A stretch of 64,000 nucleotides of DNA from a candidate division FCPU426 bacterium (GCA_040756875.1 JBFLYH010000001.1:992001-1056000), one strand, 5' to 3'; counted from the first letter of the stretch, positions 4,558 to 42,732 are shown. Numbers and translations: made by a program. Notes: generated by a model not told the origin, from the letters alone.

Positions 4558-4695
4558 GGTTTTCACCTTTCCTTGAAAACCCCTGGGCCCTCGGCTGGTT
4601 TTCTGAAGTATATCCACCGGAATAACGCGAGGGACTTTTAATGCACAGGGCATAGAGTAAGGGAATTATCGCTTGATCCCAATCATTTCCCGGAT

Positions 4696-13167: not shown

Positions 13168-13208
13168 CGCTCGCTCTTGATATTCTATGGTTGATCTCAA
13201 TGCATCCT

Positions 13209-15253: not shown

Positions 15254-18200
15254 CTATTTATATATCTCTTTGATAATCTCTATATTCCTCTCCTCCGTTT
15301 GGCCCAATACCTCGGCACTGATGGCACAATTATATTTGTATGACCGCCAATGGCAGGCGCCGGTTACGTCGTCGCCCAGATCTTCATGCCCGTCCCACTC
15401 CACCTGGTTATGGCCTGCCTGGCCGTTGGGCGCGCCAGGCGCGAATGGCCCGAACACCATCACTACCTTGCCCGTGGTTTTCGAACGGATTGTGATCACC
15501 ACCTTGGCATCCAGGTTTATGGTGTAATGGATCCAAGTGGTTTGTCCTTCCTCAGGCCGGAACGGGTTGGGTGCGGCATAGCAATCGTGCAATTCCAGGT
15601 CCGGCGTAACGGTCGGCGAGACAGTCGGCGTAAACGTCTTGGTCGGCACCGGCGTCTTAGTCGGCTCGGGCGTGGGCGTCCACACCGGCGTAATCACGCC
15701 CGTGGGCGATGGGATGGGTGTGGGCAGTTCCGCGCCTTTGGGCAATATGGTCACCAGAGCGGTGCTGGCCGCATGCTCCTGGCCAGCAGAGGCTTCTGCC
15801 CGGATGGTATACATACCCGGCTCAACGATGTGTCCGAAGTTATTCCTTCCATCCCAAAGAACGAATTGCAACTCGCCTGCTCTGCTGATCTCTTGTTCAC
15901 TATAACCTTTAACCATGCCGCCGAACCGGTCCAGAATGGCCAAGCTTACCATAGCGGGTTTGGTGACGAAGTAGCTGATGCTGGTTTTCTGTCCCTCTTT
16001 CGGAATAAAGACCGCTGGTTGGGAGTTGAGCGCCAGCACTTCCAGCCTGGCAGCCGGCGTGGCCGTGGGACCCGGCGTGGGCGCAGCTTCAGCCAGATCC
16101 AGGCGGAACTTCTGCACGCGATGGTTGCCCGTGTCAACGACATAGGCGTAATGTTCCGCCGGGGCATTCAATTGAACATCCCGACCTTCTTTAAACGTCA
16201 CTCCATGCGGCCGGTCGAACTTGCCATGCACGCTCCCGAAGCCGCCGAATGCGCCGATCAGGTTGCCATAGGGACCGAATTCCTGAATCCGGTGGTTTTC
16301 CAAATCAGATATCCAAACATTGCCCAACGGCCCGATCTTGACATTTTGCGGTTCGTACTTGTTCTGCGTACCTTTATAGGAATACAACGGATTACCCTGG
16401 GCGTCCAATTTTTCCACTTTATTCGCCACTTGGTGCACGCGATCCAGCACGCGCGCATCATTCAAGCCCAGGTAATAGGCTTCCTCGGTCAGGGCCCGGC
16501 CCGCGGCCAGGTCGGTGTAATGGGCCAGCGGATCGTAGCAAGCCGCGCTGACGCCGTCGGGCCAGTCCTTGATTGGGCGCAGGGCATCCGCGTCATCCAC
16601 ATAGAACACTTTACCGTTGCCGTCGAGGATATATCCGACATTGTCGTTGCTTAAGCAAACAGATACGGGCCATTGTAAGACATCCCCCGCAGCCGCATAT
16701 TCCCGGATATAATTCCCTTGCAGATCCAGCACTTGCACGCGTTTATTCTGATAATCCGTGACATACAATTCGTTTTCCCCCTCACCCTCCCCTCTCCCTC
16801 CTGGGGAGAGGGATAAGGTATGGAAGGGTTTCGATACATCGATATTGGTGGGCAATTTGAATTCGCCCGGCCGCGTGCCTTTGGCACCGATGGTTTGCAG
16901 ATACTGATCCCCGGCATCGAACTTTTGCACGCGGTTATTCTTGCTGTCGCTCACGTACAGGCAGCTGGTTCCATCCACTTCCGCATCCCACGGCTCGTTG
17001 AACTGCTGGTTGGAACAACCTTTCACGCCTGTGCCGATCTGTCCCAGGAAAGTCCAGTCGCCCACGCGCACGCGGACACTGTGCGTCATGATTGTAGGGG
17101 CGTTCAATTGAACGCCCCTACAGGTCACGGTCAGCACTAATTCATACAACCCCTGTTCCAACCCACAGGTATTCCACGCGCCCAGCAGTCCGATGACCAC
17201 CGGGTGGTCGCCCTGTGCAATGGTCACCAATGCCCCGCCCGCAGCCGGCCGGTATGCCAGTACATAACCCTGGAAATCCTTCTTCTTGGCGGCGGTGGCG
17301 ATCCCTACCACGTGCACATAACCGTTGACCAAACTGCCTTCGCACGGTGAGAGGATCAGGCAGCCATTGCCGCCGATGGGCGTGGCTGTGGCCGAAGCCG
17401 TAGAAGTGGCGGTCACCGTAACCGTGGCTGTGGGGGTAGCGGTCGCAGTCATGGTCACCGTGGATGTAGCAGTGGAAGTGGCCGTACTCGAAGCAGTCGC
17501 CGTGCCAGTGGCTGTGGGCGAGAAGGTGGCTGTCCCGGTATGAGTGGATGTGGCGGTTGACGTATCTGTCGTCGTGCCTGTGGCCGTGGCGCTCGGCGTG
17601 GCGGTGAAAGTCGGCGTGGGAGTATCCGTTTCCGTAGGCGACGCGGTCGGCGTATCGCTGTCCGTGGCAGTCGGTGAAGCTGTGGCCGTCGCAGTGTCCG
17701 AGGCTGTAGGCGAAGCGGTCGGAGTGGCGGTATCGGTGGGTGATGCAGTCGGCGTGGCGGTATCGGTCGGCGTGGCTGTAGCCGTAGGCGTTTGTGTGCT
17801 GGTGGCAGTCCAAGTGGCGGTCGGGGTCGGCGTGGCCGTGGGTTCCAGAACCCGCACATTCAAGGACGCCACGTTGCTGCTGTTGCCCACGTTGTCCACG
17901 GCATAATACTCCAGCGAGTGTTCGCCCACTACCAGGGAGAAGGGCTGAGGATTAAAGGTCCAAACGCCTTGATCAATGGACAGGGCCGTGGCTGACAGGC
18001 CAGAGTAATTGTCAGAAGCAGCGAGCGCCAGGACCCGGTCAGGCGAGGTTTCATGTCCTTGGACTATTGGCATGCCGTCCTGCTCCATCCAGGCCGCAGG
18101 TGCCGTGTTGTCCGACCTGAACAGACGCGTGCGCAGGGGCATGGTATTGCCCCCTGCGTCCACGCTCATGAAGTCCGCGGCGTATTCGCCGTCCTGCCAG

Positions 18201-21200
18201 TAGGCGAAATGCGTGGTGCCTTCGGCATCCACCCAAACGTCGAGGAGGTAGAACGGCCCGCCGTTGTACTCCCGGAGCCCGTTCAACGGAGTCACCGGGT
18301 CAGCCGCCCTGCGGACCTGATAAACTGTGCGGGCCACGCCCGAAGACATGTTGTTCACCACCGGATCATAGCGGTCCAGCCAGGGATGAGTGCCGAAACG
18401 CGAATAGTGATTGCCTGCAGTGTCAGTGTAAGGCGACTGGCTGTAATTGATCTCCACCTCGGGCGGAGTCAGGTCCACGCTGATTTCCACGGGATTCACG
18501 GCCGCCGCATTGCCAGCCTGGTCTTGCATGCCCAGGTAGAGGTGGTAAATGCCGTCATTCACCCGGTTCGAGTCGTCTTTCAGGCCATTCCATATATATT
18601 GCGTGTCATACGGCAGCACTGCATGATTTTCACCCAAAGTCCGCATGATATGGTCCGCAGCATCGCGCACCTGGACCGAATAAGTCACATAGACCGGGAA
18701 ATTATCCGACAGATTCAAGGTGATTTGTGTGCTGTCCAGCATGCCGTCCGAATTGGGCGAAATCAGGTCCGGAATTGCGGTTCCAACAGCCTGCGGAGCC
18801 GCGGTATCCACATAAACAGGTTTCTCAACCACAGCCGGATTGTTGGCAGCATCCCAAGCAGTCAGTTTGATCCGGTATTCTCCGTCAAGCGCAAGAGTTC
18901 CCTGGCTATCTTTACCATCCCAGGCTGCGGAATGGATTTGTCCGGCATCCTCTATCCCATTAACCAGGACAACCGCTGCATCCGGGCCAATGATTTCCAA
19001 GCGAGTCCGCACCTGGGTTGCGGCTCCATCCTCGACCTGGTAGGTCAACTGCGTTTCATCCTGCACACCGTCGTTATTGGGTGAGATCCAGGCAGGTTCA
19101 ACTTGCAGACTGGTGATGATCGGGGGTGTAATATCATCGGAAACCGTCACTTGCCCGACTGCCGGCGCGCCCAAGTTGCCGGCCAAGTCAATGGCAGATA
19201 GGAAATACGCATAAATACCTGCCGGCATAATATCGCCTGATGTATTTTTCCCGTCCCATGTAAAGAAGTTGTCATTCCCGGGCGATGTCATCGGGAATCC
19301 AGAGGTTTGGCTTTGCAGGGTATTGCCTAATGCGTCCAGCACACACAAGGATACCTGGCAGGCCTCGTTCAATCCGAACCTAATCCGCGTAATCTGGTTA
19401 TTCGAAGAAGCCGGGCTGAATGGATTAGGATCAGCCCCCAAGTCCGTCAATATGGGCGGAGTGTGGTCAAACACGATTTGCATGGAAGTCGTGTTGGCAT
19501 TCCCGGCCAAATCCTCGACATACAGGCTGGCTACTGCGCTGCCAATCATCAGGGAAGCATCCCACATGCCCAACACCCCATTGACTATACGCCCATTACC
19601 TTCCTGCGTATACTTCGTACCTTCGTGGTCAAGTTCCAGTTTATAGATCTTGAAATTGGCGTCATCTGCCGTGCCCATGATCGACAGGGATTGTCCAACC
19701 GGCGTATCCGGGCCAGGCGATACGATAATCGCCTGCGGCACCGTGTTATCCAATGTCATCCCAATGGTTTGGCTAGCTTCGTGTCCCAATAAATCCTCAT
19801 GCCGCAAGGCGAGCTGATAAGCACCGTCCATGTGTGAAGTAGTATCCAGACGGCAGACGTGGGAATGGTCAAGCGGCCTGGCGGTAATACTCAGTTCCAC
19901 GGGCGAACCCGAAGGCGGCAGGAGGGTCAGGGTGCTCAAGCCCGGATGCGCTTCAGTCACAGTGCCGAACACATCCGCCTGGCCATGCAGGTAGGACTGG
20001 TCCAGGGGCGAGTCAATCGCAACCAATGGCGCCTCGTTATCGATCTCCACGGTGACTTCATCGCTGGTTTCATTGCCTGCCTGGTCATAGGCGTTTAGTT
20101 TTAATATATATAGGTAGGCGCCGCCTGCGCCGCTTCCCCCTTCAGAAGCCAGGAGTATTTGGGTGGTATCCCAGGCATGGATCACGGCATTGCTCACAGG
20201 AGCGCTCAGCGCATTGGCAGTCAGGGTCTTCCAATCCGCCTGGGCGGCATTCAAATCCAGATATTTCAACAAATAGTGGTCCAGATCATCGCCTGTGATT
20301 GTAGCCCGCACATCCACGGTCCCGTGCAGCAGCGGATTGGCGCCCAGGTCATCGTCCGGAGCGCGCGGCGATTCGATCCTGACCAGCCCGGGCCCCTGCC
20401 GGTCGATCAGAATATTCCAGGCATGCGCATAGCTGGAATTCCCTGCCGAATCAAACACAACCAATTCAATATTGTAAATCCCGTCCTCTTCCTTGCTTGT
20501 ATCCCATTCGCATAGTGTGCCGGCTATTATTGCTTTGGTCCCAATCTTCTTCGTGTTCTTTGTGCCTTCGTGGTAAAGGTTGATCTTATACTCTTTAAAA
20601 TACGGGTCATCCGCTATGCCGACAATTTCCACCAAGCCGTTTACAGCTGCATTATCGGTTGGCGAGTCTATTACAGCCAAGGGAGCGGCATTATCCAGCA
20701 CTACTTTGCGTTTGATCACAGTCTGATTGCCGGCCTGATCACGGGCAATAATACGCAGGGTATATTCGCCCTGGAGGGGTTTGGTGTCCCAAACATGAAT
20801 GACTGCCTGGGGCACGTTGGCCGTGCCAGAAGCCAGTTCCGACCAGTTCATGGGCGCGTAGCTTTCGCCGTATTGCAGGGACCATGTGGCCAAGTGCGGA
20901 TCGTCTATCAACGCCTCCACCTGAATGTTTCCGCCCACAATGACCTCATCCGGCGCAGGCGACATGATCGCCACATTGGGCGCCTGGTTGTCCACCGAGA
21001 CGCTCTTAAAATCCAAGCCCACATTGCCGGCAGCATCCATTACCCATAAAGCCAGGATATAATCGCCCTGCAGGCCCTGGCTGTTGAACCAACCCAAATG
21101 CTCCTGGGTTTTGGAGGTGTTGCTGCTCAGCAACAGGATGGGATTGGACATATCGTCAGCCGGGAAGTAGAACAATCTGTATTGGAGGAAGTTTTTGTCC

Positions 21201-30200: not shown

Positions 30201-33200
30201 TGATAGGCGGCGTTGCCCACCGCCAGCAGCAGCCTGCTGTCGGCTGTGGGCGAATTGCCCCGCCATTGCACGCTGTGTTCCCATTCGCCCCCGCCCTGGC
30301 ACAACACGCCTTGCGTCAGGGTGCACACCGGCGCATCGCCATTATTGGGATCAATAACATCCACACTCACCAGCGCGTCTTTAGACAGGATAAAGCGCAG
30401 GCTGCTGGACGCCAGCGCCGTATTGCCGCTTCCCAGCCCCGCGTAGGTTGAAAACACCGGAGGATCGACGTAAGCCTGGATCAAACTGAGCGGAGAAGTT
30501 AGCTGGATGTTTTGCGAGGCCTCGGCATACCCCCGGTTGCCATAGCCCACGGCGCTCAGGACGAACGTATAAGGGCCGTTGGGCACCATGGCGCCATAAG
30601 GGTCTTGGCCATCCCATGTGAACTGCTGCTTGGTTTTCACATAATATTTAGTCACCACATTGCCGCTGGTCTCGGTCTGGCCATAGATATTGATCCAATC
30701 CGGGTGTTCCTGGGTCAACGGCGCCCCATTGTTGTACAGGTCAAAGGAAACCCACTCGCCGGTTGTGGTGAAATCAAAGCCTTCAAGCGCGCCTTGGGTA
30801 TGTTCCTGGCTGTCAGCCAGACATTCAAATCCGATATTATTGCCGGTTTGATAAGTGATGCCCTCTTCATTTTCCCTGTCGAATATCACGTTGGTAACTT
30901 TAAAGAGACCGTCGGTTTTCAGTATCCCGGCAAACCTATATGCGTTCCGAGTATTTGCATCTCCGTCGCCGTTGATGCGCAGATGCCAGGCTTCATTATC
31001 CTGCCATACATAGATGCCGCAGGAATCCGTGTTTTGGTTGATGGGAATAATGGATTCAAAGGGAGGTTGGGCGTCTATTTCCCTGTCGTTTACGCCCAAT
31101 TGGACTTGATGGGATACTTGACGATTGCCGGCATCGAATATAGTCAGGCTGACATCCGCCTGATTCACGTCCTGCAAACCAAGAGTATAATCAATGGCCA
31201 ACTGCGGATCAGTGGTAAAATTATGGCTGGGAGGCGGGTTGGAGAATTGCACAGTTATAACCGGATTCGGAGCACTAGGATCATTGGCAGGAACCGTCTT
31301 ATCCACCAAAGCTACGGCTGTATCCATCATGCGAATGCCGGCGAGCGTTTGCCCCGAGCTATCCACAGTATCTTCTTCCAAATCCACCAACAGAAGCGTG
31401 TATTCGCCGTCCGCCAAGTTTTGTGCATGCCAATACCCTAAAACGCCGTTATTATCCACGGTTCTTAAGGATATGTTTTTTTCGCTCTCGCTTTTTCGGT
31501 TGATCACCGGCACTTCGATTTCCGAGGTTTCCCAGGCGGACAGGTCAGCCAAGGCGCTTGGTGCCTCATGCTGGCCAGAACGATAATACAAACGATATTC
31601 CTTGAATTTAGCCGGATTGGTTCTGACAGGGTCCAGAGCCAAGCCGCGAATGACCACCGTATTATATAGTTTTTCCGCCGGATCGTCCGGGTAGCTGATA
31701 TAAGGCGCCACGCCTTCTTTGATAAAATCCGCGTATTTGGTCACATGGCTGCCATGGCTGTCCGTGGCGGTAATGACAAAAGCATACCGGCCCATGGGAA
31801 CCGGCTGCGAAGTCTGCGAATCATTGCCATCATACTCCACTGAATGGGTTTCAATCTTAACCGCGGGATTAGCCAATACCATGGCCGGATCAAATACCCT
31901 GACCGTGCCGAGATCGTCTTTCTTGACCACTTTAATTTCCACGTTCACTGGATCTCCCTGAAATTCCGGAATGTCGTCCGCCTGGCTGATGGTGTAATAA
32001 AGATTTACGTTCGCGCCTTCTCCGGCCAGCACGTACGGTTGCACGGCGAAATCCGTCACCAGCGGCGGTTTACGGTCCACGATGATGCCGGCGATGGATT
32101 CCATAACGCCCACATTACCCGCGTCATCCTCGGGCACGAGCATCAGGGTGTAAACGCCGTCCGGGATATTCATGAAGGGATTGGTCAAGTCCCAGGCAAA
32201 ATAATTATTGGGATTGGTTTGGTAGATGGGCTCGTTATTTTCGTCCACATCCACCACGCGTCTATTTTGCGCATAAGCCCGTTGCGCGCCGTAGTAGGAT
32301 AGGTTTTTTGTCTCGTTATACATCACGAATTTTACCGAGCAATCCCCATCCACCGAATATTTGACGTAAAAGCCGTTAAAATCATTGTTAACCCGGTTGT
32401 CCGTGATCGGCGTTTGCGCCGTGTCCATTCTAAGCAGGGTCAGGCCGGGCAAAATCACCGGCGGCGTGAGGTCTATTTTAAAGGGTTTTGTCTGCCCGCC
32501 CTGGTTCCCGGCTAAGTCCTTGGTTTCGACGACCAGCTCATAGTCGCCCGCAGCCACGAACATGGGATGGTCTCCGGAAGTTTTATAATCCCAGCTGAAC
32601 AGGGCCGATCCAACGGAGCGGGTTTGCATGGTTTCGGAATAAACCGCGATATGATCCCCTGCGCGGCGTATCGTTATCCGCGTTTCGCTGAGCAAAGGCG
32701 ACAGATTGTCGCTGATTTCATACCGCACCCGCAACCGTTCCGGCGCTTCAGGCGCCGTATGGGTGAAAGCCAGATTATCCGCCATTTTAATATCCACCAA
32801 CGGAGCTTCGTCGTCAAAATAGAACCCCCAGGCGCTTTGGCTCTCCTTGCCCACCTCGTCTTTGGCTTTGATCAGGATGGTGTAGTAACCGTTGGATAGA
32901 TCCGCTTCCTGCGCAGCCAGGCGGAAGGTCAGCTTTTCAGGGGTAACCGCAAGTACTTCGGCATCCAGGCTTTCCGCTTCGGCGGTCGCGGTGTTCACTT
33001 TCTGCAATGCAATGCCGATATTGCCAGCGGGTATATTATTGTTGATGTCCGTATTGTAAATAATGGCGGACATCACCGGGCGTTTTTCCCTGATAAAAGC
33101 CTCATACGTGGGATAATTCGGCGCGATCTGGATGGGCATCATGTCCAGATTGATCTGAAACACCTGCCTGGCGATTCCGCCATATTTGTTTTCCGCGACC

Positions 33201-36200
33201 AAGACCACGGTATTGATGCCCTCGAGCAGATTGATGGGCTTGTCTGCGGTGCTATACAATTGAAAGACTCCGTCTTCGGTAACCGGCGCTTCCCAGAAAA
33301 CTTCGTAGTTAAAGGACACCTTCAATTTGCAAAAAGCTACATTGCTGTCTTGAATGATCCCGCGCAGGCCTCGATAGGGTTTATCTATGCTGATGCGGCC
33401 TATATCCTGGACCTGTTGGTCTTTGGTCAGCATGTATAGCCCCACTCCCGGGTGGGTGCGGGGCGTTACGGCGCATTCATGCAAAGGTTTGCCGTTGATT
33501 TCAAGCCCGTAGATTTTTGGCCTTTCCATGGAAATGAGTTTGGCGATCTCTTCGCTGGCATTGGGGCCCGAGAAATGCCAGCCTTTGACTTCCACCTGCT
33601 TTTCTACCGTTTGCGGGGTTGATTTATTCAGTCCCATAAGCCGGCTCAGCGCCAGAGGCGAGCCTTCGGTTACGCCGTCCGTGTTGATGACATAATCCGT
33701 GGCAAGATAGGCCAGCGCCCCCACGATCACCGCGCCCGGAAGCCCGCCGGGGATATTAATGGATATGGAAGGTATCCATGAAATAAGTTTGTTAAGATCA
33801 GGCAGGTTTTGCAGGATAAATTCTTTGACATGATTGCGCAAGGGGATCTGGATTTTTTCGCGAAGCAGCAGGTCCACTTCGCTGTTGACCCAGCGGATGG
33901 GCATTTTGCGCAGGTCTTCCAGAGGAATGAACAGCATTTCGATTTCCTTGTCCAGTGCGGCATATAGCTGGTCCGCATCGCGCGTTTCCGGCATGGCGGT
34001 GATAATGGCTGATGTCTGATTGCCAACCACTGTGTTTATGTTGTTCTGTATATTGCTCACGGACGCAATCAGGCTGTTTATCCGGTTTTCTATTTCCACG
34101 GTGGGTATCCAATTGCGGATTTCGGCTGATATGGCGTTGCTGACCTTGTCCTTGGTTTGCGAACCAAAAGCGTTCTGTATGATTTTACCCACGTCGTTTT
34201 GCAAGGGATGGTTGATGAAATTATTCAGGTCATTGACGCTTCCCTGCTGTAATTGGCTTTTCAAGTCCTCAAGCGGCCCTCTAAACCATTCGGCCGCGGT
34301 ATTGGTCGGGTTGGTTATATATTTACTTACAAATTCATCCACGGTTTGAGCAACAACCTGTTTATAGGTGAGGAAATCCGTGCCGGTTCTGGCCAGCAGT
34401 TCCTGCATTCTGTTTCGCACCTCTTGCTTGACCGCATCTTTCAACCAGGCATCGTACATGAGCTGTTTTTCCGCGTTTTCCAACACTTCGTTGATTTTAT
34501 TCTTGATGGGCTTGAATACCGAGCGTTCCAGCTCCTCCTCCAGCTTGCTGGTAAGTATTTCCGCCACTTCTTCATTTAAATTGTTATAGGTTTTGCTTTT
34601 TAAATCGAATAATTTCACGCCGGTATATTGCCCGCTGGCTCCCAATGCTGCAAATCCCGCGACAATGATCACCTGAATTCCGGGGTCCATATCCGGCCAC
34701 AATCGTGTGACCACACTGGAGGTAGGTATATTTATATCCTCGGTGTTGAACTGGTTTAAGTCTTTCATGAAGTCCGAGCCTGACTGAAAGTTCCCGGCAT
34801 AATCAAAACGTCCCAGAGCTAGTCCGATGAGATTCAGGGGATTAATCACTAAATCGTTACGGTTGCTGGTGCGTAAAAACGATAAAAAACTCAAGTCAGG
34901 CCCGTATGCTCCCCAACGGTTTTCCAATTGAGTTAACAGGTTGTTCAACCCTAGTTTTTCGAGCCAGGGAACCACGGGCGAAAACAGCAGGTTTACGGCG
35001 TAGGATTGGGTCGCCATGGGAAGGCTGTTGACGCCATTCAAAGGAGTGCCGATAGTGACGAGTTTTGCGATCTTGTCAATGGGTGTATTTTCCTGCAAAT
35101 ATTTTTTCGCCAATATCCCGGCCTCGCCCCAGGCCATAATGGTGACTTTCTCAGTCCTGGATCTAATATAATTTTCAATTTGGTTCTTAATGGAATCCAA
35201 TTGCAGGTCAATGCTTCCCCATTTCTGTTCTCCATAGATATTGCCCATGCGAAAATCGATGCCGCTGTTTATTTCGCCCAGCCCGGAAAATATCCCGCCG
35301 ATGGAGCTCAAACTGCCGAAAAGGTTGCGCAAGCCGCCGAATTCAATCCCTCCCAGGGAAAAAAGGCTTGAAAGCATAAAATTGAGATTACTAGTGCCGC
35401 TGTTCTCCCTTATGTTTTGCGTGGTCGTGGCGTTTGTGTTGCTTTCATGAGTGGTTGCCGGTTGGTTTACATTGAAAGAATGGGTATTGTCGCTAACACC
35501 GTTTCCATAAGCGTTCTCGGCGTATATTTCAATTTGCACATCGCCGTAAACGTGGTTGCCTTGTTCATCTTCGGCGTTCCATTTAAACTTCAGGCTTTGA
35601 TCGCCGGCAACTTCCACATCAGGAACCGGCTTGCCTTGGGCCAGCATGTTCACCAGAGAACCCGAAGGCTTAAGGTACTTGAAGTACCAGGTTCTAAGCT
35701 GTCTTCCGTTTTGCACCAGCCGCACGTGCAGGCGGTATAAATAGTTCATGGAATCCGTGACGCGCAGGCTCATGAATTGCTGGGCTGCCGAGCAGGTAAT
35801 GCTCTCCGCGGGGGTGGCCGAAGTTTGTATAGTTTCATCGCTGAATTTGACTGTTTTTGCATAATTCTTGGTTTCTTCGTTGCCTGCCGCGTCCATAAAA
35901 GTGATTTTTGGGGCCAGGAGACTCTGCGTGCCGGTCAACCCGCTAAAATCCAGTTCAGCCGACCATTTGGTTTTTTCGTCCGTTGTATCGTCGTCCGCCT
36001 CTTGCACGGCATTGGCTTTAATCGAGATGCTCCCGTCGCTGTTTTTAACCTCGACCGACGGGGGCATTTCGGGGTTGATGTTCTTTTCTTCGATTTCGAA
36101 TTTGAATTTGTATTTGCGTTTGCCGAGAAGGTACTGGGTGTCCGCGGTGTCCACTTCCGTGTTGTTGCTGACGCCGTTGGTGTCGGTGGTGTTGTTGACG

Positions 36201-38245
36201 CGGGTTATTTGGAGAGGGGTGAGAATGGGTTTTATCAGGTCCACCGTCAGTTCATATCGCCCATAAGTATTGGCATCATTTGGAAGTATTTCGCCGCTGG
36301 CCGTGCTCCCGTTATTGTCGTCCCTCCGTGCCGTTAATATAATTTCCACTTTTACGCCATCCGCAAATCCCAAGGAAGCTATATTAATGGTTTTGCCCCA
36401 GGTAAAATAAGGTATTTCATCTTTAACCCTGGTTAAGTTTCTAATGGGAGATGGAGGGCCCAGGGGTTCCGGGGTCGGAGCCGGAGTGGGTGTGGGGGTT
36501 ATTCCAAATACTTGGGTTTTATAAAGGTTGTAGATTTGCTCATTCGCTTGGCTCATGTACTTCAACGGCAACAAACTATCCAAGGCCAAGGTGACTTCCT
36601 TGCCGTTATGATTGGTTATTTTAACCGTCGGTTTTTGCGGTTCCTTGTCGATTTTTCTGTTGAACTGCACGGCTAGTTTGAGGTCGTCGGAATTAATGCA
36701 GGCCTGGGAATCTGAAGTTTTAGTAAAATGGGGGGCGTTATTTACTTTATTCCAGGTGCCGTCTATAACATTTCGATATTTGTCATTTCTCGTCTGTTTG
36801 GCAATGAGCCGCTCGACTGTTACGTCTTTAGAGTTGTCTATATGGATATCATAAGTCTTTTTAAATATCTTTGAACCCCGAACGTTTTTAGCGACGATGA
36901 TGATTTTTCCGTCTTGAAGTTCGGCATTATTTGCAAGGTCTTGTATTTTAGGAACACTGTTACTTCGTCCAGTCCCTTGTGCATTCCAGAGATCATCTTT
37001 ATCCCATTCTGTATATAGGAAGATATCATTTCCACATGGTATTTTCTTAATACTTTCCTCACCCTTAGGAACATATTCATCTATCGGGTAAAATAATTGA
37101 TAATATCCCGTTTTATCCCAGCTTTTTGTATAGTATGTGCCGATACCGGTTATCGAATTATAACCTGATTCAATATTTGTATTTATTGGTGATCCGGGTG
37201 TATAGGGTGTTGTGGCAAGACTGGTAGGTTTTCCTCCAAAACTGAATTGCTGGATAAGATGCTCGTCATCTTCTTCATCATAATATATTTTGACTTCCTC
37301 TAGGTCCGATTGACCTTCCAGGACAGGGTCACCATACGAATTAATAAAAACTCTCAAATAATAACCTTGGAAATCTTCAGTAAAAATGGGAACAACTGGT
37401 CTTTGCCATTCATGATATTTACCATTTGCAAGTTTTTCACCTAATAATCTAACATCGTATTCGGTTTCTCGATGAGGAATATTAAACATAGGATTGATAT
37501 TTACTCCCAATCCAGAATCAATGTGCAAGTGGACTGGGTACTCCTTGCCTTCTAATACCCACGTTTCAATTCCATTAATTGTTTTTATCGTCCATCCACC
37601 TGAATTTCCAACCGCTCCGATCCAATTATGAGTCGGCAACATAAGCGTGTTTCTTGTAACCGCGGCAATTGTTGTTCCCTTTTGCATTACAAAAGAATCC
37701 AAATCGCTTGGATAACGCACCTTTATTTCCGCTACAGGCCCGATAATGTATTTTGCTTTTTTATTTTCTTTGTCATCCCATATAATAACAGTATTATTCT
37801 TATTAACGTCCTTTATAAAGGAAAATGCTGGGTCTGTATTATTGGTATTGTTAGTATCAATATAAAGGTAATTATTTGTTCCGTTATGTGTGATCCCGCC
37901 AATAATGTAAGGGGTATTCCCCTTGTATATATAATCATTATTAAATAAATGCAGGTAGCGATACTCTCTTTTCCTATCTTCAGAACGAACCCTTATGAAT
38001 ATCAAATTAGAATCCTCGTCTTGCTCAACTTGAAGCACCGTACAATTTTCCATAGTCTTTGCGCCGCGGCCTTCCGGAATAGGAAGATCAATTGCTTTGT
38101 GATAATCAGGTTTACTTCCCAATAACCGCGGACCAAAATCATCCGAGAATCTAGTGGCTATCGACTCAACCGAAATTGCTATACCAGAAAATATTAGTAA
38201 AACTAATATTGTTATGAGTAGTACTCCGATTGCCTTACGTACCAT
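15254..38245 (-). CDS. Giant (~7,663 aa) secreted multidomain surface protein / putative toxin-adhesin
   Basis: Single uninterrupted ORF. Likely start ATG 38245 (GGGGTG RBS, signal peptide MVRKAIGVLLITILVLLIFSGIAIS). Contains M23 motifs HKAID/YLH/HLH, a degenerate lipase fold, ~19 FlgD-type 'FSPNxDG...WDG...G.Y...D.AGN' repeats, an HFS motif, two PA14-like domains, a Thr/Pro linker, NHL repeats and a terminal FlgD/CTD-like domain. Confidence 0.9.
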   Translation of the reverse strand: MVRKAIGVLLITILVLLIFSGIAISVESIATRFSDDFGPRLLGSKPDYHKAIDLPIPEGRGAKTMENCTVLQVEQDEDSNLIFIRVRSEDRKREYRYLHLFNNDYIYKGNTPYIIGGITHNGTNNYLYIDTNNTNNTDPAFSFIKDVNKNNTVIIWDDKENKKAKYIIGPVAEIKVRYPSDLDSFVMQKGTTIAAVTRNTLMLPTHNWIGAVGNSGGWTIKTINGIETWVLEGKEYPVHLHIDSGLGVNINPMFNIPHRETEYDVRLLGEKLANGKYHEWQRPVVPIFTEDFQGYYLRVFINSYGDPVLEGQSDLEEVKIYYDEEDDEHLIQQFSFGGKPTSLATTPYTPGSPINTNIESGYNSITGIGTYYTKSWDKTGYYQLFYPIDEYVPKGEESIKKIPCGNDIFLYTEWDKDDLWNAQGTGRSNSVPKIQDLANNAELQDGKIIIVAKNVRGSKIFKKTYDIHIDNSKDVTVERLIAKQTRNDKYRNVIDGTWNKVNNAPHFTKTSDSQACINSDDLKLAVQFNRKIDKEPQKPTVKITNHNGKEVTLALDSLLPLKYMSQANEQIYNLYKTQVFGITPTPTPAPTPEPLGPPSPIRNLTRVKDEIPYFTWGKTINIASLGFADGVKVEIILTARRDDNNGSTASGEILPNDANTYGRYELTVDLIKPILTPLQITRVNNTTDTNGVSNNTEVDTADTQYLLGKRKYKFKFEIEEKNINPEMPPSVEVKNSDGSISIKANAVQEADDDTTDEKTKWSAELDFSGLTGTQSLLAPKITFMDAAGNEETKNYAKTVKFSDETIQTSATPAESITCSAAQQFMSLRVTDSMNYLYRLHVRLVQNGRQLRTWYFKYLKPSGSLVNMLAQGKPVPDVEVAGDQSLKFKWNAEDEQGNHVYGDVQIEIYAENAYGNGVSDNTHSFNVNQPATTHESNTNATTTQNIRENSGTSNLNFMLSSLFSLGGIEFGGLRNLFGSLSSIGGIFSGLGEINSGIDFRMGNIYGEQKWGSIDLQLDSIKNQIENYIRSRTEKVTIMAWGEAGILAKKYLQENTPIDKIAKLVTIGTPLNGVNSLPMATQSYAVNLLFSPVVPWLEKLGLNNLLTQLENRWGAYGPDLSFLSFLRTSNRNDLVINPLNLIGLALGRFDYAGNFQSGSDFMKDLNQFNTEDINIPTSSVVTRLWPDMDPGIQVIIVAGFAALGASGQYTGVKLFDLKSKTYNNLNEEVAEILTSKLEEELERSVFKPIKNKINEVLENAEKQLMYDAWLKDAVKQEVRNRMQELLARTGTDFLTYKQVVAQTVDEFVSKYITNPTNTAAEWFRGPLEDLKSQLQQGSVNDLNNFINHPLQNDVGKIIQNAFGSQTKDKVSNAISAEIRNWIPTVEIENRINSLIASVSNIQNNINTVVGNQTSAIITAMPETRDADQLYAALDKEIEMLFIPLEDLRKMPIRWVNSEVDLLLREKIQIPLRNHVKEFILQNLPDLNKLISWIPSISINIPGGLPGAVIVGALAYLATDYVINTDGVTEGSPLALSRLMGLNKSTPQTVEKQVEVKGWHFSGPNASEEIAKLISMERPKIYGLEINGKPLHECAVTPRTHPGVGLYMLTKDQQVQDIGRISIDKPYRGLRGIIQDSNVAFCKLKVSFNYEVFWEAPVTEDGVFQLYSTADKPINLLEGINTVVLVAENKYGGIARQVFQINLDMMPIQIAPNYPTYEAFIREKRPVMSAIIYNTDINNNIPAGNIGIALQKVNTATAEAESLDAEVLAVTPEKLTFRLAAQEADLSNGYYTILIKAKDEVGKESQSAWGFYFDDEAPLVDIKMADNLAFTHTAPEAPERLRVRYEISDNLSPLLSETRITIRRAGDHIAVYSETMQTRSVGSALFSWDYKTSGDHPMFVAAGDYELVVETKDLAGNQGGQTKPFKIDLTPPVILPGLTLLRMDTAQTPITDNRVNNDFNGFYVKYSVDGDCSVKFVMYNETKNLSYYGAQRAYAQNRRVVDVDENNEPIYQTNPNNYFAWDLTNPFMNIPDGVYTLMLVPEDDAGNVGVMESIAGIIVDRKPPLVTDFAVQPYVLAGEGANVNLYYTISQADDIPEFQGDPVNVEIKVVKKDDLGTVRVFDPAMVLANPAVKIETHSVEYDGNDSQTSQPVPMGRYAFVITATDSHGSHVTKYADFIKEGVAPYISYPDDPAEKLYNTVVIRGLALDPVRTNPAKFKEYRLYYRSGQHEAPSALADLSAWETSEIEVPVINRKSESEKNISLRTVDNNGVLGYWHAQNLADGEYTLLLVDLEEDTVDSSGQTLAGIRMMDTAVALVDKTVPANDPSAPNPVITVQFSNPPPSHNFTTDPQLAIDYTLGLQDVNQADVSLTIFDAGNRQVSHQVQLGVNDREIDAQPPFESIIPINQNTDSCGIYVWQDNEAWHLRINGDGDANTRNAYRFAGILKTDGLFKVTNVIFDRENEEGITYQTGNNIGFECLADSQEHTQGALEGFDFTTTGEWVSFDLYNNGAPLTQEHPDWINIYGQTETSGNVVTKYYVKTKQQFTWDGQDPYGAMVPNGPYTFVLSAVGYGNRGYAEASQNIQLTSPLSLIQAYVDPPVFSTYAGLGSGNTALASSSLRFILSKDALVSVDVIDPNNGDAPVCTLTQGVLCQGGGEWEHSVQWRGNSPTADSRLLLAVGNAAYQFRLHAQATDDPGQTIDRKYNVTINNAQGAGVSASLETVGNTETPIAGIPSIRGESSYYLEIFGEGNWYPPIPFEYTLHAFGTQTIVQYPFVPFVTKARKYYDAVTAMAAVPAPNDGLLTYRERDYKVSAEFIGYYLLDGEKQHSYYPSELNNRVHTFTRSQPKLIFDHSYLSPAKYNNWLNTAYYKEDIQRAHYSVAIKPIGLDALFDVLHFDIVQNQREVTQSASEMGNFAFSSPYNETPMIRAKDGWDNAEIRFWNSEIKYQGWDPAFSFNNLTNRFTQWASENGYYYGAPGDGEEIVTIKDGGSEIDDLTRPGDVPEFPYRDGSTKHYYINYTLEGVADTKDIASPCKYKYVNYWNSAENDFDTQDPFNTYLMFAPEYASYLSDGPHYRYDLYPVSSGETWKPADEAPLSYTPGKSTLNDRNRILFDKIGPHKFRAHSQLWLPVFEAPFPFSPSEQKDRTIVDFILNELNGNPDKHWNKTYFPKVGEVGYYSPNSNYMELNPDKSFINYGDEPGNASWVRKTNQWLRYDPAVDGYAYEIDPLEDFNQGVLYTYGPEIVEQGNGSDTPITFETGQPGVAGKEKKIQNITLEGFNTGDIVNLSDLPGKQADIYLGANGTEKVYFNGKDFDTYWSTADDPALNNTNGLIVSAPDSMTFDSAPKMYLLKELYPFSNQNPAETNHSIYGLNTYWATGYGGVSATPQDNPEISIADWKIQTRYMDGSLCEDFQIYNRAFHENTFHTHEGQEFTDAFEFKLVESPGGKWLVEIRGTAGGAGLDHYEIYYYDDDGWHLIMNSADPDYADRIAHYPAGVLGYWDVTNLVGRYTVLLRAVNGQGGAATATDEVVIGKYIEAGSTLPEHSIAHDPYKRSTLQFKPGSFEENTVVSVNSVPLTKAKVAVKPAIIPLGPVIEIKADKKIEFNDPEDQPTLTFRFTYAEAVEYGLIGSTNIMTIYHMDAEGELEPLSTDISYYKLVDGSYEPPTNGSYQDEFENGDPGYVIVAYASVQHFSYYLVLKGGPLPANITLDQPVSPVNVAGIAIDGTGAVGQEVECWVDDDAEYADQGGGDSTPPVLQTQTFAITTPISGLNTIGAYSLAINLPFEGDNYLYVKYQNLENSPMAMRVVNRDLRPAQFTLFEVLNPKFSPNGDGVKDQTKIRFSLDEPATVIYKLYDTSGNEMETQELPLAPSLAKRGDGGVEEITWDGLKADGTTYPEGIYTVRLFVADSMGNISPESSQVKSIWLDLTPPEITDTIADLGAFSPGNDGINDTIGVPFALSEYAYVTATVRDADNNIVWRLGDPLALTAPAQHSLIWDGSVLNDSWLSEKVYTVHLKAVDEAGNSSITKYCQVAVDLTTLTISRLSVMPGVFSSHGGSSKLTYHINDDADVTIKITQMGNTDYPDGMVRVIQSNLRQSPGYHSVSWDGLNDAHQSVTEGTYTFRVVATDTSGNPAEPQNIAVSVANDTALPLASIVDILPNTITPNCPTSVGQNDVARIKFSLYDEVTSGDGISGPLKDIRLRIYKYGQLVRDLAQYASLPQGDAHITSWDGKDNAGQYVADGSYTVLVTCKDNSGNPSTSYRPESRGVVYVDNQAPEVFDVSSSPRVLSGSSGNDHVVIRYFLRDNLQNTPGFNFHTSISIFNYNDPANALKTVDSAVDGAEWNQVDWDLSGMAESIYFFRITTQDPAGNPARESGYAGVVVDKTPPEVNVVSVDIDTPFSPNPPLGDGLKDTNELKYFCADNTDKTPQMTVKVCPSGNLNNPILKLLDNTSVAGGNTHAAVWNGKDSGGITAPEGSYIYEVLAVDEAGNSAYAYSGPVTLDITSPAEFGSITINPEIFSPNSDGIKDETAITYVTPAEETVITHKIVGEADRFNWEAEGQGLYYPPKTFEYEVIVEGQRTNYEYVTFTCRVEVKGIDNNTIPPTIVFPLERGVAYDPVEFNWVLTKDFECWGLDGIPSLGDGVEAKYFDRYSSIGPFEVDPYGPVETRIEDTPYYDWGLGGPEGVQNGPPDYGPMIDGFQARWRGVLYIPPHEQTLIYRATSDDGQYLSSFDLSFPNNINAMIEDWHERYDDLPVSQIYESHSAINRDQLDGLQYDMFEKNNTGLPNYAVAKLEWNQGPEGAWEPIPRQYWYSRTPSIIHVTDDSTTGNAVWNALDNYTGKYAGTFVPVSPSAYNLHYRENWPPTLPPTYYTAKYMVETNGDSITALVQGNSITALTYAHDSSGYVLDPNTDQPAPWRDTYCRGLYTEYYQDTGFVDLAATTITPTVFYDWIDDQPNTTPFPHVFDHEGPIYVPNPDDNSQGTPLPQVNADAAFSVRWTGLLYTPYNKTYTFKVKTYGEKVALWIGNQKIIDAHQSGMQEPCGDTLLAAGQWYPIRFELINYGEYQEYDPYMQEGDERELLWGWSDQFGNYQGDHPIPPEYLAVKSWREEPNVRTHHKKGYYSRRLNDLLVAPKTIYQKETLHEAPITVTTNTNTVYAAFYSADGSIDYGSTISYTDPYANDFHIIAEPIDGAGTSVLPWAITSPRRVVTADYLHNSFVAFAYLPGSIPNSNNADALDEVKKVTIKFYDPATHEEVTNTISAYFEYNLDWPGSQYLPNGVTFTCSSSEPFSTRPVQTFRKENDEVRLNFAGAGEPRNVFDSTGAYLPPEIANRVKINYWSITPTSTDGSIRTDVLIENIITHKNEDPDLDHYNGDFTVRLSDSLVIRTLADGNTLAASTSVEQTWDGKTNLGVVAPDGTYTSKLWAYDQAWNWTLTNRPVSVDNTPPDVSISSPGDFSQVTGSISILGKATDEHFSQYWLFAKPVGASLWNTLTASGRPMAGPQDLLGVVDSSGLNGDWELRLAAEDEAGNRSETTRTYTLINDSDFVLQLYPGYPLISPNGDGVLDTYTLTAYLPQAAVWDCDIYPAGQTTKIRTLAYQETAGPDTATLVWDGKLADAITTAPDGDYYFNLTATATIGTNTLKAYRSGKVEVDTTTPTARLDAPAWGSQVEGTVELRGTAWDKNFLQYRLFYFPADDMSNPILLLSSNTSKTQEHLGWFNSQGLQGDYILALWVMDAAGNVGLDFKSVSVDNQAPNVAIMSPAPDEVIVGGNIQVEALIDDPHLATWSLQYGESYAPMNWSELASGTANVPQAVIHVWDTKPLQGEYTLRIIARDQAGNQTVIKRKVVLDNAAPLAVIDSPTDNAAVNGLVEIVGIADDPYFKEYKINLYHEGTKNTKKIGTKAIIAGTLCEWDTSKEEDGIYNIELVVFDSAGNSSYAHAWNILIDRQGPGLVRIESPRAPDDDLGANPLLHGTVDVRATITGDDLDHYLLKYLDLNAAQADWKTLTANALSAPVSNAVIHAWDTTQILLASEGGSGAGGAYLYILKLNAYDQAGNETSDEVTVEIDNEAPLVAIDSPLDQSYLHGQADVFGTVTEAHPGLSTLTLLPPSGSPVELSITARPLDHSHVCRLDTTSHMDGAYQLALRHEDLLGHEASQTIGMTLDNTVPQAIIVSPGPDTPVGQSLSIMGTADDANFKIYKLELDHEGTKYTQEGNGRIVNGVLGMWDASLMIGSAVASLYVEDLAGNANTTSMQIVFDHTPPILTDLGADPNPFSPASSNNQITRIRFGLNEACQVSLCVLDALGNTLQSQTSGFPMTSPGNDNFFTWDGKNTSGDIMPAGIYAYFLSAIDLAGNLGAPAVGQVTVSDDITPPIITSLQVEPAWISPNNDGVQDETQLTYQVEDGAATQVRTRLEIIGPDAAVVLVNGIEDAGQIHSAAWDGKDSQGTLALDGEYRIKLTAWDAANNPAVVEKPVYVDTAAPQAVGTAIPDLISPNSDGMLDSTQITLNLSDNFPVYVTYSVQVRDAADHIMRTLGENHAVLPYDTQYIWNGLKDDSNRVNDGIYHLYLGMQDQAGNAAAVNPVEISVDLTPPEVEINYSQSPYTDTAGNHYSRFGTHPWLDRYDPVVNNMSSGVARTVYQVRRAADPVTPLNGLREYNGGPFYLLDVWVDAEGTTHFAYWQDGEYAADFMSVDAGGNTMPLRTRLFRSDNTAPAAWMEQDGMPIVQGHETSPDRVLALAASDNYSGLSATALSIDQGVWTFNPQPFSLVVGEHSLEYYAVDNVGNSSNVASLNVRVLEPTATPTPTATWTATSTQTPTATATPTDTATPTASPTDTATPTASPTASDTATATASPTATDSDTPTASPTETDTPTPTFTATPSATATGTTTDTSTATSTHTGTATFSPTATGTATASSTATSTATSTVTMTATATPTATVTVTATSTASATATPIGGNGCLILSPCEGSLVNGYVHVVGIATAAKKKDFQGYVLAYRPAAGGALVTIAQGDHPVVIGLLGAWNTCGLEQGLYELVLTVTCRGVQLNAPTIMTHSVRVRVGDWTFLGQIGTGVKGCSNQQFNEPWDAEVDGTSCLYVSDSKNNRVQKFDAGDQYLQTIGAKGTRPGEFKLPTNIDVSKPFHTLSLSPGGRGEGEGENELYVTDYQNKRVQVLDLQGNYIREYAAAGDVLQWPVSVCLSNDNVGYILDGNGKVFYVDDADALRPIKDWPDGVSAACYDPLAHYTDLAAGRALTEEAYYLGLNDARVLDRVHQVANKVEKLDAQGNPLYSYKGTQNKYEPQNVKIGPLGNVWISDLENHRIQEFGPYGNLIGAFGGFGSVHGKFDRPHGVTFKEGRDVQLNAPAEHYAYVVDTGNHRVQKFRLDLAEAAPTPGPTATPAARLEVLALNSQPAVFIPKEGQKTSISYFVTKPAMVSLAILDRFGGMVKGYSEQEISRAGELQFVLWDGRNNFGHIVEPGMYTIRAEASAGQEHAASTALVTILPKGAELPTPIPSPTGVITPVWTPTPEPTKTPVPTKTFTPTVSPTVTPDLELHDCYAAPNPFRPEEGQTTWIHYTINLDAKVVITIRSKTTGKVVMVFGPFAPGAPNGQAGHNQVEWDGHEDLGDDVTGACHWRSYKYNCAISAEVLGQTEERNIEIIKEIYK
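16158..16186 (-). repeat. Degenerate GTAG-type REP inserted in frame in the giant gene (GRDVQLNAPA)
   Basis: GGTCGGGATGTTCAATTGAATGCCCCGGC shares the TTCAATTGAA core with the perfect palindrome at 17093; lies in an NHL loop. Confidence 0.7.
16777..16818. repeat. CCCTCTCCC...GGGAGAGGG REP-like element in frame in the giant gene (TLSLSPGGRGEGEG)
   Basis: CCCCCTCACCCTCCCCTCTCCCTCCTGGGGAGAGGGATAAGG resembles the intergenic repeats at 6688, 14170 and 55139; lies in an NHL loop. Confidence 0.75.
17093..17122. repeat. Perfect 30-bp GTAG-type REP palindrome in frame in the giant gene (CRGVQLNAPT)
   Basis: TGTAGGGGCGTTCAATTGAACGCCCCTACA is its own reverse complement and spans exactly 10 codons. Confidence 0.9.
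17378..17842 (-). repeat. Low-complexity Thr/Ala/Pro/Ser linker (~155 aa) in the giant protein
   Basis: PTATPTPTATWTATST...TATPTASPTDT... repeats separating the Ig stalk from the C-terminal NHL/FlgD module. Confidence 0.9.
19601..19632 (-). repeat. CACGAAG-type repeat in frame in the giant gene (DHEGTKYTQE)
   Basis: Minus-strand GACCACGAAGGTACGAAGTATACGCAGGAA resembles the tandem units at 48914-49105. Confidence 0.65.
20545..20577 (-). repeat. CACGAAG-type repeat in frame in the giant gene (YHEGTKNTKK)
   Basis: Minus-strand TTTACCACGAAGGCACAAAGAACACGAAGAAGA versus intergenic TCACCACGAAGACACGAAGGGCACGAAGGAGG. Confidence 0.75.
26609..26655. repeat. Nested palindromic REP-like element in frame in the giant gene (ELPLAPSLAKRGDGGV)
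   Basis: Outer arms AACTCCCCC/GGGGGAGTT and inner arms CCCCCTCTTT/AAAGAGGGGG; lies just before the WDG motif of a FlgD repeat. Confidence 0.8.
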
Positions 38246-38261
38246 AATACACCCCATAAAA

Positions 38262-39125: not shown

Positions 39126-39176
39126 CCCTGCCTCCTGTTGGTGTTGTTTCAATATCATAGTGATATTTCTAATCAA

Positions 39177-41579: not shown

Positions 41580-41660
41580 CTCGACCCCTCGGCTGATGTA
41601 GTAGATGGCGAGGTTTTAAGTATAGCACATCTTCCCTTGCCCATCAAATTAGGCACCCCC
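41576..41660 (-). promoter_or_regulatory. 85-bp promoter/RBS module, copy 1
   Basis: 84/85 identical to 47672..47756. Minus strand reads GGGGGTGCCTAAT-TTGATG-N17-TATACT (extended TG)...GAGGGG...ATG. Confidence 0.8.
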
Positions 41661-42659: not shown

Positions 42660-42732
42660 ATATCTTTCGACCCGGCCGCCAGTTTTTCCATGCGTTTTAT
42701 TTTACTCATTTTGACATCTATACAACGTCCCC
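41666..42732 (-). mobile_element. RAYT-type element B bounded by 26-bp terminal inverted repeats
   Basis: 41666-41691 GGGGACGTTGTTTAAATGTCAAAATG versus the reverse complement of 42707-42732, GGGGACGTTGTATAGATGTCAAAATG (24/26); no target-site duplication seen. Confidence 0.8.

Follow-up and report, generated by a model that had tools for sequence, protein, structure and literature searches.

A 23-kb gene of a candidate division FCPU426 bacterium encodes a predicted giant surface fibre with a divergent M23-type hydrolase head

The giant fibres of immunoglobulin-like (Ig) repeats that are exported by type IX secretion (T9SS), SprB and GhpA, are to our knowledge known so far as adhesins of Bacteroidota, and we know of no enzymatic head on SprB. 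According to the available part of its description, GhpA, the "grappling hook" protein of Aureispira, has 5,898 residues and forms a 240-nm fibre; it begins with a Sec signal and an N-terminal module that is distal, continues with 52 Ig repeats and ends in a C-terminal T9SS domain, and genes for a barrel and a peptidoglycan-binding protein lie downstream of it; the same text gives SprB as 6,497 residues (10.1101/2024.01.29.577165). Here we describe a giant gene in a 64,000-nt stretch of the genome of a candidate division FCPU426 bacterium (GCA_040756875.1, JBFLYH010000001.1:992001-1056000; hereafter the window, to which all coordinates refer). The gene lies at 15254..38245 on the minus strand, as do all the window features given below, and encodes a protein of 7,663 amino acids. 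Compared by description with SprB and GhpA, this protein has the same length class (more than 5,000 residues), Sec signal, N-terminal functional module, Ig array and terminal domain, and next to its gene, too, an outer-membrane barrel and a peptidoglycan-binding protein are encoded, although the families of these two differ from PorP and PorE. The likeness to GhpA extends to Thr/Ser-rich, probably glycosylated parts, to a putative C-terminal sorting domain and to the position of the two accessory genes directly downstream. However, the GhpA tip is a hook-like adhesin whereas the tip here would be an M23 metallopeptidase; the GhpA barrel is PorP-like and its partner OmpA-like, whereas a PorV/PorQ-family barrel and a LysM protein are found here; and the present host is not a member of the Bacteroidota, GldK, GldL and GldM were not found in it, and the likeness described is one of architecture. 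SprB of Flavobacterium johnsoniae offers a similar comparison, being an Ig-repeat filament that leaves the cell through SprA and is kept on its surface by a barrel acting as carrier or anchor, but it has a type B C-terminal domain (CTD) and moves along a gliding track, while the gliding motor genes gldK, gldL and gldM were not detected here. We lean, on balance, towards reading the giant protein as an outer-membrane-anchored fibre of about 300 nm with a hydrolase at its tip, built like SprB and GhpA.

The giant open reading frame (ORF) is a real gene. A single uninterrupted frame of 7,689 codons, without internal stops, runs from a TTG at 38323 to 15254, where it ends in a TAG (15254-15256). 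We number residues along this frame; the protein starts at residue 27, the ATG at 38245, which is the start of the 7,663-residue database protein and aligns with Met1 of the orthologue in G004, one of the other genomes of the phylum set (G001, G003, G004, G019, G020 and G091 in what follows; the genome under study is G000). The original prediction, made from the sequence alone, had proposed a 23-kb ORF for some 7,660 residues; its coordinates are correct, and the strand, which it left out, is minus. The database protein sits on a contig of 1,597,075 nt, in a genome of 3.22 Mb in 7 contigs with a completeness of 100% and a contamination of 0.09%, and the window contains no N. One contig from Logan, 24,511 nt long and with a depth of 50.4, corresponds to positions 18500-38499 with no difference and no gap; it comes from a groundwater metagenome, probably the source sample, and is thus an independent assembly of the same sample. 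Contigs of sludge and digester origin, from three runs, reach 90-99% identity over parts of 24.5-36 kb and leave 36.5-38.5 kb uncovered, which makes them uninformative on this point.

Two other explanations were rejected, a chance ORF by the 7,689 sense codons and a collapsed repeat by a blastp comparison (E<=1e-5) of the giant protein with all ORFs of the genome, which gave the self-diagonal only and no off-diagonal segment pair; the Ig repeats are therefore old and diverged rather than a collapsed recent array. A further possibility is that the gene is an assembly artefact, a chimeric join or a decaying pseudogene, in which a low-GC head was wrongly joined to a higher-GC stalk. The step in GC content at third codon positions (GC3), from about 0.3 to about 0.6 near 36.5-37 kb, is what such a join would leave, but the Logan contig crosses the head/stalk junction at even depth and is identical over 20 kb, the frame is open throughout, the G004 orthologue runs from head through neck to stalk in a single open frame (69% identity over aa 27-994), and the same GC step recurs in G003. 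A mis-join at the GC step was excluded on this basis, and the mis-assembly or frameshift that the original prediction had named as fatal to it was not found; we regard an artefact of any of these kinds as extremely improbable.

At the N-terminal end of the protein, hydropathy peaks at 2.98 (Kyte-Doolittle, aa 21-59), with a hydrophobic N-terminus at aa 31-52 that bears out the predicted signal peptide (38156..38245, aa 27-56), and the homologues of the head begin with similar signal peptides. There follows, at 37475..38167 (aa ~53-283), what appears to be a divergent, "split" M23 metallopeptidase of the LytM fold. Its motifs are H75xxxD79, Y123xH125, G239xSG242 and H265xH267; an insert of about 110 residues separates YLHL from GNSG, and the giant protein has about 20 more before HxH. 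In the available part of a review on these enzymes, M23 is defined by H(x)nD, HxH and an additional catalytic His normally about 30 residues before HxH (PMC9662197), a spacing that the ~110-residue insert enlarges here. A word-indexed homologue search with aa 27-1000 returned only the protein itself at near lengths and nothing at shorter lengths, while full HMMER against 1.84 billion representatives found 11 relatives of the head (E 7e-17 to 9e-4), mostly secreted proteins of 380-470 residues. In 10 of 10 aligned head sequences DFGPR (D62-R66), H75, D79, Y123, H125, G239, S241, G242, H265 and H267 are invariant, and so is N277. At its gathering threshold PF01551 leaves the giant's head unmatched, both at E<=1 and in the genome scan. 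Among the 11 relatives Pfam M23 touches three, one of them above the cut-off (P0011, 30.7 bits against 28.7), and it scores 33.2 bits against the same 28.7 on a head member from G020; the P0011 and G020 matches cover the N-terminal half of the Pfam model only.

Family-level and fold searches converge on the same assignment. A profile of the head family matched ShyA in the PDB (1.3e-4) as well as lysostaphin, LytM and zoocin A; of the 25 sequences listed at E<=1, the depositors' names identify 21 as M23-type proteins. In these alignments H75-K-A-I-D79 falls on the H..D of ShyA, H265-L-H267 on "PHLH" and Y123-L-H125 on "RYLHL". With an AlphaFold model of the head, M23 proteins fill 9 of the top 10 Foldseek rows (best E 2.9e-3), and in a VIA-align comparison with 48,161 chains, ranks 1-26 of 50 are all of the M23/LytM fold (Z 8.8-6.2), with root-mean-square deviations of 2.5-5.1, all but one below 3.7, and 92-124 residues aligned, typically about 100-110, from both halves. 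Because the family profile, the invariant motifs and the fold searches agree, we accept that the head seemingly has the M23/LytM fold with its active-site motifs intact, in line with the M23 call of the original prediction; Pfam is blind to the head, yet family profile and fold place it in M23, with HxxxD, YxH and HxH all kept. The head thus resembles the M23/LytM endopeptidases lysostaphin, LytM, ShyA and StM23, as far as these are covered by the available text (PMC9662197), in its fold (26 solved chains), H(x)nD, HxH and the additional His. It differs in that those enzymes are small secreted or periplasmic proteins, whereas this one is split by ~110 residues (and ~20 before HxH), is invisible to Pfam and is carried on a fibre of 7,663 residues. 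The window contains a second secreted M23 protein (42527-44506, 659 aa) with a near-complete canonical domain (Pfam M23, E 6.8e-6), to which the head has no significant BLASTP similarity. Residues 340-588 of that second protein resemble the neck of the giant protein of G003 (aa 461-724) at 26% identity, a hint that short and giant proteins may have swapped modules next to the head.

We then asked how the giant protein compares with its relatives. G003, of the same family but another genus, has a 7,178-codon ORF that matches aa 907-6849 in one high-scoring segment pair (HSP) of 6,238 columns at 40% identity; the two are collinear, at 34-64% identity per 200 residues, with no gain or loss of modules. 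The flanks are syntenic as well, with counterparts of the PorV-like gene (44% identity), the NHL gene (49%), the LysM protein (54%) and the Por_Secre_tail genes (47-49%). The last ~400 residues in G003, the end of the NHL propeller and two terminal Ig domains, stand in a separate frame (L034, G003:C2:165423-166646) that overlaps the giant ORF by 16 nt and is 61% identical, which reflects either a frameshift or a true split. On this collinear stalk the heads differ: aa 1-906 of our protein and aa 1-707 of the G003 protein give no HSP. The head of G003 contains "TDCAHFVSQCLTAGG", and its single database homologue reaches 23.2 bits with Amidase_6 and weakly matches an endolysin-like domain. G004 carries the closest orthologue, with the M23-type head included in the 69% identity mentioned above and 76% identity in the middle. 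A more distant giant in G019 shares some middle and Ig modules only, at 22-31% identity, apart from low-complexity matches to the Thr linker. The M23-type head covers most of its profile in 6 of 99 phylum genomes, where the frames that it opens are 471, 868, 898, 3,862 (G091) and 7,689 codons long, while a sixth, of no fewer than 2,632, is cut by a contig end; it also starts giant frames in G004 and G091.

The head does not come alone. Immediately upstream, ending 16 nt before the giant's ATG, lies an ORF of 304 codons (38262..39176) for a secreted protein of about 290 residues (38262-39125) with a signal peptide and D.NG-type repeats. In all four head-family loci that have upstream sequence, the place directly upstream is taken by an ORF of 281-304 codons on the same strand, whose product has a signal peptide. 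Similarity between these companions is weak (pairwise E 1e-8 to 5e-4, in a tiny database), one of the four matches DUF5711, and the upstream ORF of G003 is unrelated to the family. The companion is a candidate inhibitor, immunity protein or chaperone. Together with the first ~450 codons of the giant gene it forms a unit of low GC (36974..39176, GC 0.36-0.38). GC3 is 0.27-0.36 over aa 1-450 and 0.48 over aa 451-600, then 0.54-0.78 except for 0.40-0.53 at aa 4501-5250. The abrupt shift of composition that the original prediction had placed near 36240 is therefore real, but the step lies at ~36,500-37,000, close to that position and not at it. The low-GC region marks off a 5' unit without dating any transfer; the heads may come from a shared source of low GC, or else the 5' end may be specially constrained. 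Altogether, these comparisons suggest that head and upstream secreted protein behave as an exchangeable unit. In polymorphic toxin systems (CdiA of contact-dependent inhibition, Rhs/YD proteins) a long conserved delivery filament likewise carries a variable functional end, with an adjacent small gene that varies along with it. The giant fibre shares this conserved filament, variable end and adjacent small gene, but here the variable end is N-terminal, the small gene is upstream, and the ends would be hydrolases of extracellular substrates rather than cytoplasmic toxins; no domain shared with polymorphic toxin systems was found.

The C-terminus would hold the protein at the cell. A linker rich in Thr, Ala, Pro and Ser (17363..17860, aa 6822-6987), of 166 residues with 41% Thr where the original prediction had seen some 155, is followed by an NHL-repeat β-propeller (16064..17056, aa ~7090-7420; PF01436 66.6 bits against a threshold of 20, in four stretches, and 85.6 bits with ScyF-type NHL) and by two FlgD-like domains, all as predicted. 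The penultimate one spans 15746..16021 (aa 7435-7526); the terminal one, which begins with "PNPF", spans 15257..15574 (aa 7584-7689; the match with our self-built profiles covers 7584-7685). Aligned with its G003 counterpart, the terminal domain matches a profile of 44 C-termini from the same genome in hhalign with a probability of 97.3% (E 1.9e-11, 85 columns), and the penultimate domain reaches 96.8%. These C-termini were drawn from 47 CTD-like matches in the genome (the CTD part of PorU), and in the 44 examined between 2 and 18 residues separate the end of the match from the stop. The terminal domain is likely a sorting or anchoring domain.

Downstream genes fit such a role. Twelve nucleotides past the giant's stop begins a gene for a 322-residue outer-membrane β-barrel of the PorV/PorQ family (14273..15241), which matches NCBIfam PorV_fam at E 0.006 and a profile of 33 PorV paralogues of the same genome at 72.4 bits (E 2e-23); its G003 counterpart scores 79.3 bits with that profile. 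It is followed by a separate NHL β-propeller protein of 312 residues (13209..14147; NHL 119 bits) and by a LysM protein of 1,067 codons (10060..13263; LysM 30.5 bits) with a SprA-like stretch (TIGR04189 positions 589-712, E 4e-8). The latter has look-alikes in the ESM Atlas among uncharacterised proteins of ~1,000 residues from several phyla, and is probably a large outer-membrane barrel. Genome-wide, PorV_fam gives 44 matches, most above the 90-bit cut-off, with a positive Bacteroides control, and 13 of 41 PorV matches are located at most 600 nt downstream of a CTD-like match. The best SprA match, 77.6 bits against a cut-off of 200, is spread along a 2,149-codon ORF. In Flavobacterium, according to the accessible part of one study, carrier barrels draw CTD cargo from SprA and can anchor it (PMC10994853). 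The bacterium may export and anchor proteins by a T9SS-like system whose motor is of another kind or absent. A periplasmic protein anchored in the inner membrane was excluded, the protein being too large and its homologues ordinary secreted proteins. Alternatively, the protein might be a released exoenzyme or scaffold, cleaved from its C-terminal domain and acting in the medium or the biofilm matrix. Once transported, CTD cargo of type A may be set free, as stated in the same available text (PMC10994853), and no machinery for attachment to anionic lipopolysaccharide (A-LPS) was identified in our searches, where PorU-like matches were weak. Against this stands the syntenic set of PorV-family barrel, NHL protein and LysM protein in G003, which resembles the anchoring genes next to ghpA, and we consider shedding improbable.

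Between head and base stretches a stalk for which we scanned 21 overlapping pieces of 700 residues against Pfam and NCBIfam and against repeat profiles built from the protein itself. The profiles give 18 FlgD-Ig-type and 10 Big-type Ig domains, 26 of them distinct, in accordance with the FlgD-type and other Ig repeats of the original prediction. They are concentrated in a first array of FlgD-Ig, Big_13 and Big_3_3 domains (30131..32782, aa 1848-2731), a run of six FlgD-Ig-type domains (24746..26782, aa 3848-4526) and a second long array of FlgD-Ig and "SP..G..v.G.A.D..f..Y" Big-type units (18476..22180, aa 5382-6616); adhesin-type families are present (Big_13, Ca_tandemer, LapB-type repeats). 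Taken together, the N-terminal signal, at least 26 Ig modules, the 97.3% CTD match and the PorV-family gene 12 nt downstream support the long secreted surface filament that had been proposed, and the conservation of every catalytic motif supports its enzymatic M23 head. Two PA14-like domains, read as adhesive, had also been called, and one of these calls stands: a PA14 domain of the carbohydrate-binding, GLEYA-related type is well above threshold (23048..23323, aa 5001-5092; PF07691 39.9 bits against 24, GLEYA 28.7 bits). The other stretch (23924..24376, aa ~4650-4800) shows a short match to the motif F..RW.G.LY (E 0.008); hhalign gives it a probability of 6.6%, it matches nothing in Pfam or the PDB, and the call is unconfirmed.

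Such a content of binding modules raises the question of whether the protein is a passive adhesin or matrix fibre that chiefly attaches cells to surfaces, to polymers or to one another (PA14, NHL, Ig) and whose M23 domain serves scavenging of nutrients, such as free peptidoglycan fragments, necromass or peptides, or remodelling of the cell's own surface layer, living neighbours being spared. PA14 and the many adhesin-type Ig families would suit it, as would the general protease on a related giant discussed below and a companion family in which no toxin or immunity function is recognised; ordinary giant adhesins are, moreover, common according to the accessible part of a survey of giant genes (10.1101/2023.11.21.568195). 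The M23 catalytic motifs are, however, all kept in 10 of 10 family members, the head sits at the presumed distal tip, and different heads on a collinear stalk are more typical of modules for conflict or for specific targets. A passive fibre is quite possible, though we would not call it probable, and the enzyme-tipped fibre remains the reading that we pursue.

The rest of the stalk fared unevenly. The neck behind the head (35414..36886, aa ~480-970), taken for Ig domains in the original prediction, has no Pfam family and no hidden Markov model (HMM) support for that call; it is 64-78% identical to G004 per 100 residues and gives no HSP with G003. The degenerate α/β-hydrolase that was said to follow is likewise not supported: the module (34424..35296, aa ~1010-1300) scores 19 bits with Palm_thioest, short of the 26.8 required (E 1.2e-3), its elbow reads "AWGEAG" without the nucleophile Ser, where the G003 counterpart has "AWGESG", and it found no match among PDB sequences; it may retain the fold. 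A helix-rich region comes next (33644..34423), with one moderately hydrophobic segment by hydropathy (aa 1520-1546) and weak DUF445 and Importin_rep matches, conserved in G003. Within this lipase-like and helical region, Gly-rich hydrophobic stretches at 33745-33825 (aa 1520-1546) and 35290-35400 (aa ~975-1010) are conserved in G003. About 1,000 residues in the middle (26774..29776, aa ~2850-3850) match no Pfam or NCBIfam family and gave scores of at most 0.85, low recognition and no lead in the ESM Atlas. They include the module called an "HFS domain" in the original prediction, which is indeed a conserved module in the orthologues but has no family and only a low-confidence model; no fold was recognised for it or for aa 2850-3410. 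A model of aa 3300-3800 from a six-row alignment (mean predicted local distance difference test score, pLDDT, 46.6) contains one FN3/Ig-like domain at aa ~3412-3559, with FN3-type VIA-align rows at Z ~9 over model residues 113-260 only. The piece aa 2801-3850 has matches in 7 of 41 genomes, its own included, always within ORFs of 2,116-7,689 codons. A related-locus search with a single stalk piece gave a weak match only (28% identity, E 5e-5, in a chlamydial metagenome-assembled genome).

The following scenario would account for these features. A Sec signal would take the giant protein to the periplasm, where its CTD-like C-terminal Ig domain would be recognised by an SprA-like/PorV-type export and anchoring apparatus. 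The base would be formed by the dedicated PorV-family barrel encoded 12 nt downstream, the separate NHL propeller protein and the LysM outer-membrane protein. By analogy with known T9SS cargo, the C-terminus, with the NHL propeller and two FlgD-Ig domains behind the Thr-rich, probably glycosylated linker, would lie at the outer membrane because the CTD-like domain would be recognised and anchored there. The stalk, with its at least 26 Ig-like modules, PA14 and ~1,500 residues of unassigned modules, would extend ~300 nm by linear scaling from GhpA, and the N-terminus would be the distal tip with its zinc metallopeptidase of the M23/LytM fold. The enzyme would be kept away from the producer and would cut peptide bonds in material touched by the fibre, the likeliest substrate being the peptides in the peptidoglycan of foreign cells or cell debris. 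As the tip hydrolase would be out of reach of the producer's wall, its substrate should be external, namely the walls of other cells, debris or proteins. Head and small upstream protein would be exchangeable, the collinear G003 orthologue carrying a borderline Amidase_6-type head on an equivalent stalk. The conserved active site, the differing heads on related stalks and the companion gene favour a target-directed function, and antagonism or predation, which the original prediction had expected, is plausible.

Several observations weigh against this scenario or parts of it. At the head, a Pfam search of aa 1-700 at E<=1 found no family and NCBIfam was also blank; the AlphaFold model is moderate (mean pLDDT 58.7; predicted template modelling score, pTM, 0.59), and Foldseek gave no hit at E<=1e-3 with it. 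The G003 head is a borderline Amidase_6 (22.9 bits against a cut-off of 23.2, profile positions 2-144 of 163) without a match among PDB sequences. At the other end, the last 105 residues match no Pfam Por_Secre_tail (PF18962) or CHU_C and no NCBIfam CTD family (TIGR04183, TIGR04131), and internal Ig controls reach 94.4% and 20.7% against the C-termini profile, one nearly equalling the terminal domain; because internal FlgD-Ig controls score this close, the case for a sorting domain rests on position as much as on score. GldK, GldL and GldM (TIGR03517, PF12081, TIGR03513, TIGR03525) gave no match in the complete genome, a search whose sensitivity is uncertain since the controls also fell below the cut-off and which did not include GldN, and the SprA and PorU matches score well under the thresholds of their models. 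These results do not establish a canonical T9SS, and we call the apparatus T9SS-like in the sense that it would work like one, not that it is a member. Low 5' GC3 over the first ~450 codons is common to our genome (0.27-0.36, 36974-38323), G003 (0.35-0.43, L033:3905-5254) and G004 (0.29-0.35, L038) whatever the head type, and is thus no proof of recent transfer. G001, of the same genus and 100% complete in 8 contigs, has no match to queries from the middle, the head or the LysM protein, and the module is therefore dispensable. Finally, the distant giant of G019 has a Peptidase_C11 domain near its N-terminus (aa 522-684, E 3e-21), which points to general proteolysis rather than cell-wall attack; because C11 enzymes are proteases of a general kind, the data fit nutrient scavenging no less well than antagonism.

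Other genes of the window and genome complete the picture. Two genes upstream of the giant lies a LolA-like protein of 235 residues (39177-39884, LolA2_flexi E 5.9e-7). Two paralogous Y1 (IS200-like) transposase genes occur at 41649-42659 and 47783-48793, in the company of Por_Secre_tail cargo genes and within a region of low GC (37-52 kb), and one of the two carries a DnaA C-terminal helix-turn-helix. At 492-4345 a ClpC-type AAA+ chaperone adjoins an McsB-type protein arginine kinase (ATP:guanido phosphotransferase), a pair best known from Firmicutes. On its right the window closes with the C-terminal part of a further giant ORF (63290-64000, extending to G000:C1:1085400); this ORF has 10,037 codons, and its first 800 residues match no Pfam family. 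Genome-wide, 13 stop-to-stop ORFs of at least 4,000 codons (maximum 12,551) together comprise 95,706 codons and take up about 8.9% of the 3.22 Mb. The N-termini of 13 other giant ORFs include three RHS, one GH42/35-like and one PPDK_N match and eight without a match, and the hydrolase-head pattern occurs at none of them.

The giant fibre described here comes from outside the Bacteroidota, from a genome in which searches for the known motor genes gave no match; a predicted hydrolase occupies its presumed distal tip, and the type of enzyme differs between orthologues. Our searches of the literature on giant genes and T9SS fibres retrieved no description of a hydrolase-tipped giant fibre or of exchangeable heads, and those on M23 with T9SS, giant proteins or epibionts and on T9SS outside Bacteroidota retrieved nothing alike, which is no proof of absence; the accessible part of the giant-gene survey does not mention M23, PA14, NHL or type IX (10.1101/2023.11.21.568195). 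The comparisons made here suggest that enzyme-tipped fibres with exchangeable heads exist in related bacteria. One could go further and imagine a class of "enzyme-tipped harpoons" in this uncultured phylum, in which a conserved stalk of ~6,700 residues and ~300 nm, exported by an SprA/PorV-type apparatus without GldKLMN, would carry interchangeable lytic heads (M23 and Amidase_6 types in orthologues, C11 in the distant giant) as 5' cassettes, each with a protecting or chaperoning periplasmic companion; these would be the N-terminal, T9SS-like counterpart of polymorphic toxins and would breach the walls of neighbours on contact. We regard this generalisation as doubtful. The split M23 family, for its part, widens the sequence space known for M23, a family that finds use as enzybiotics. 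With about 8.9% of its DNA in ORFs of at least 4,000 codons and 44 PorV-family matches, the genome is a good model for the export and anchoring of large surface proteins. If the tip is active on foreign walls, the fibre would be a new way to deliver a lytic enzyme at a distance, and it would provide a handle on the competition or feeding of uncultured groundwater bacteria.

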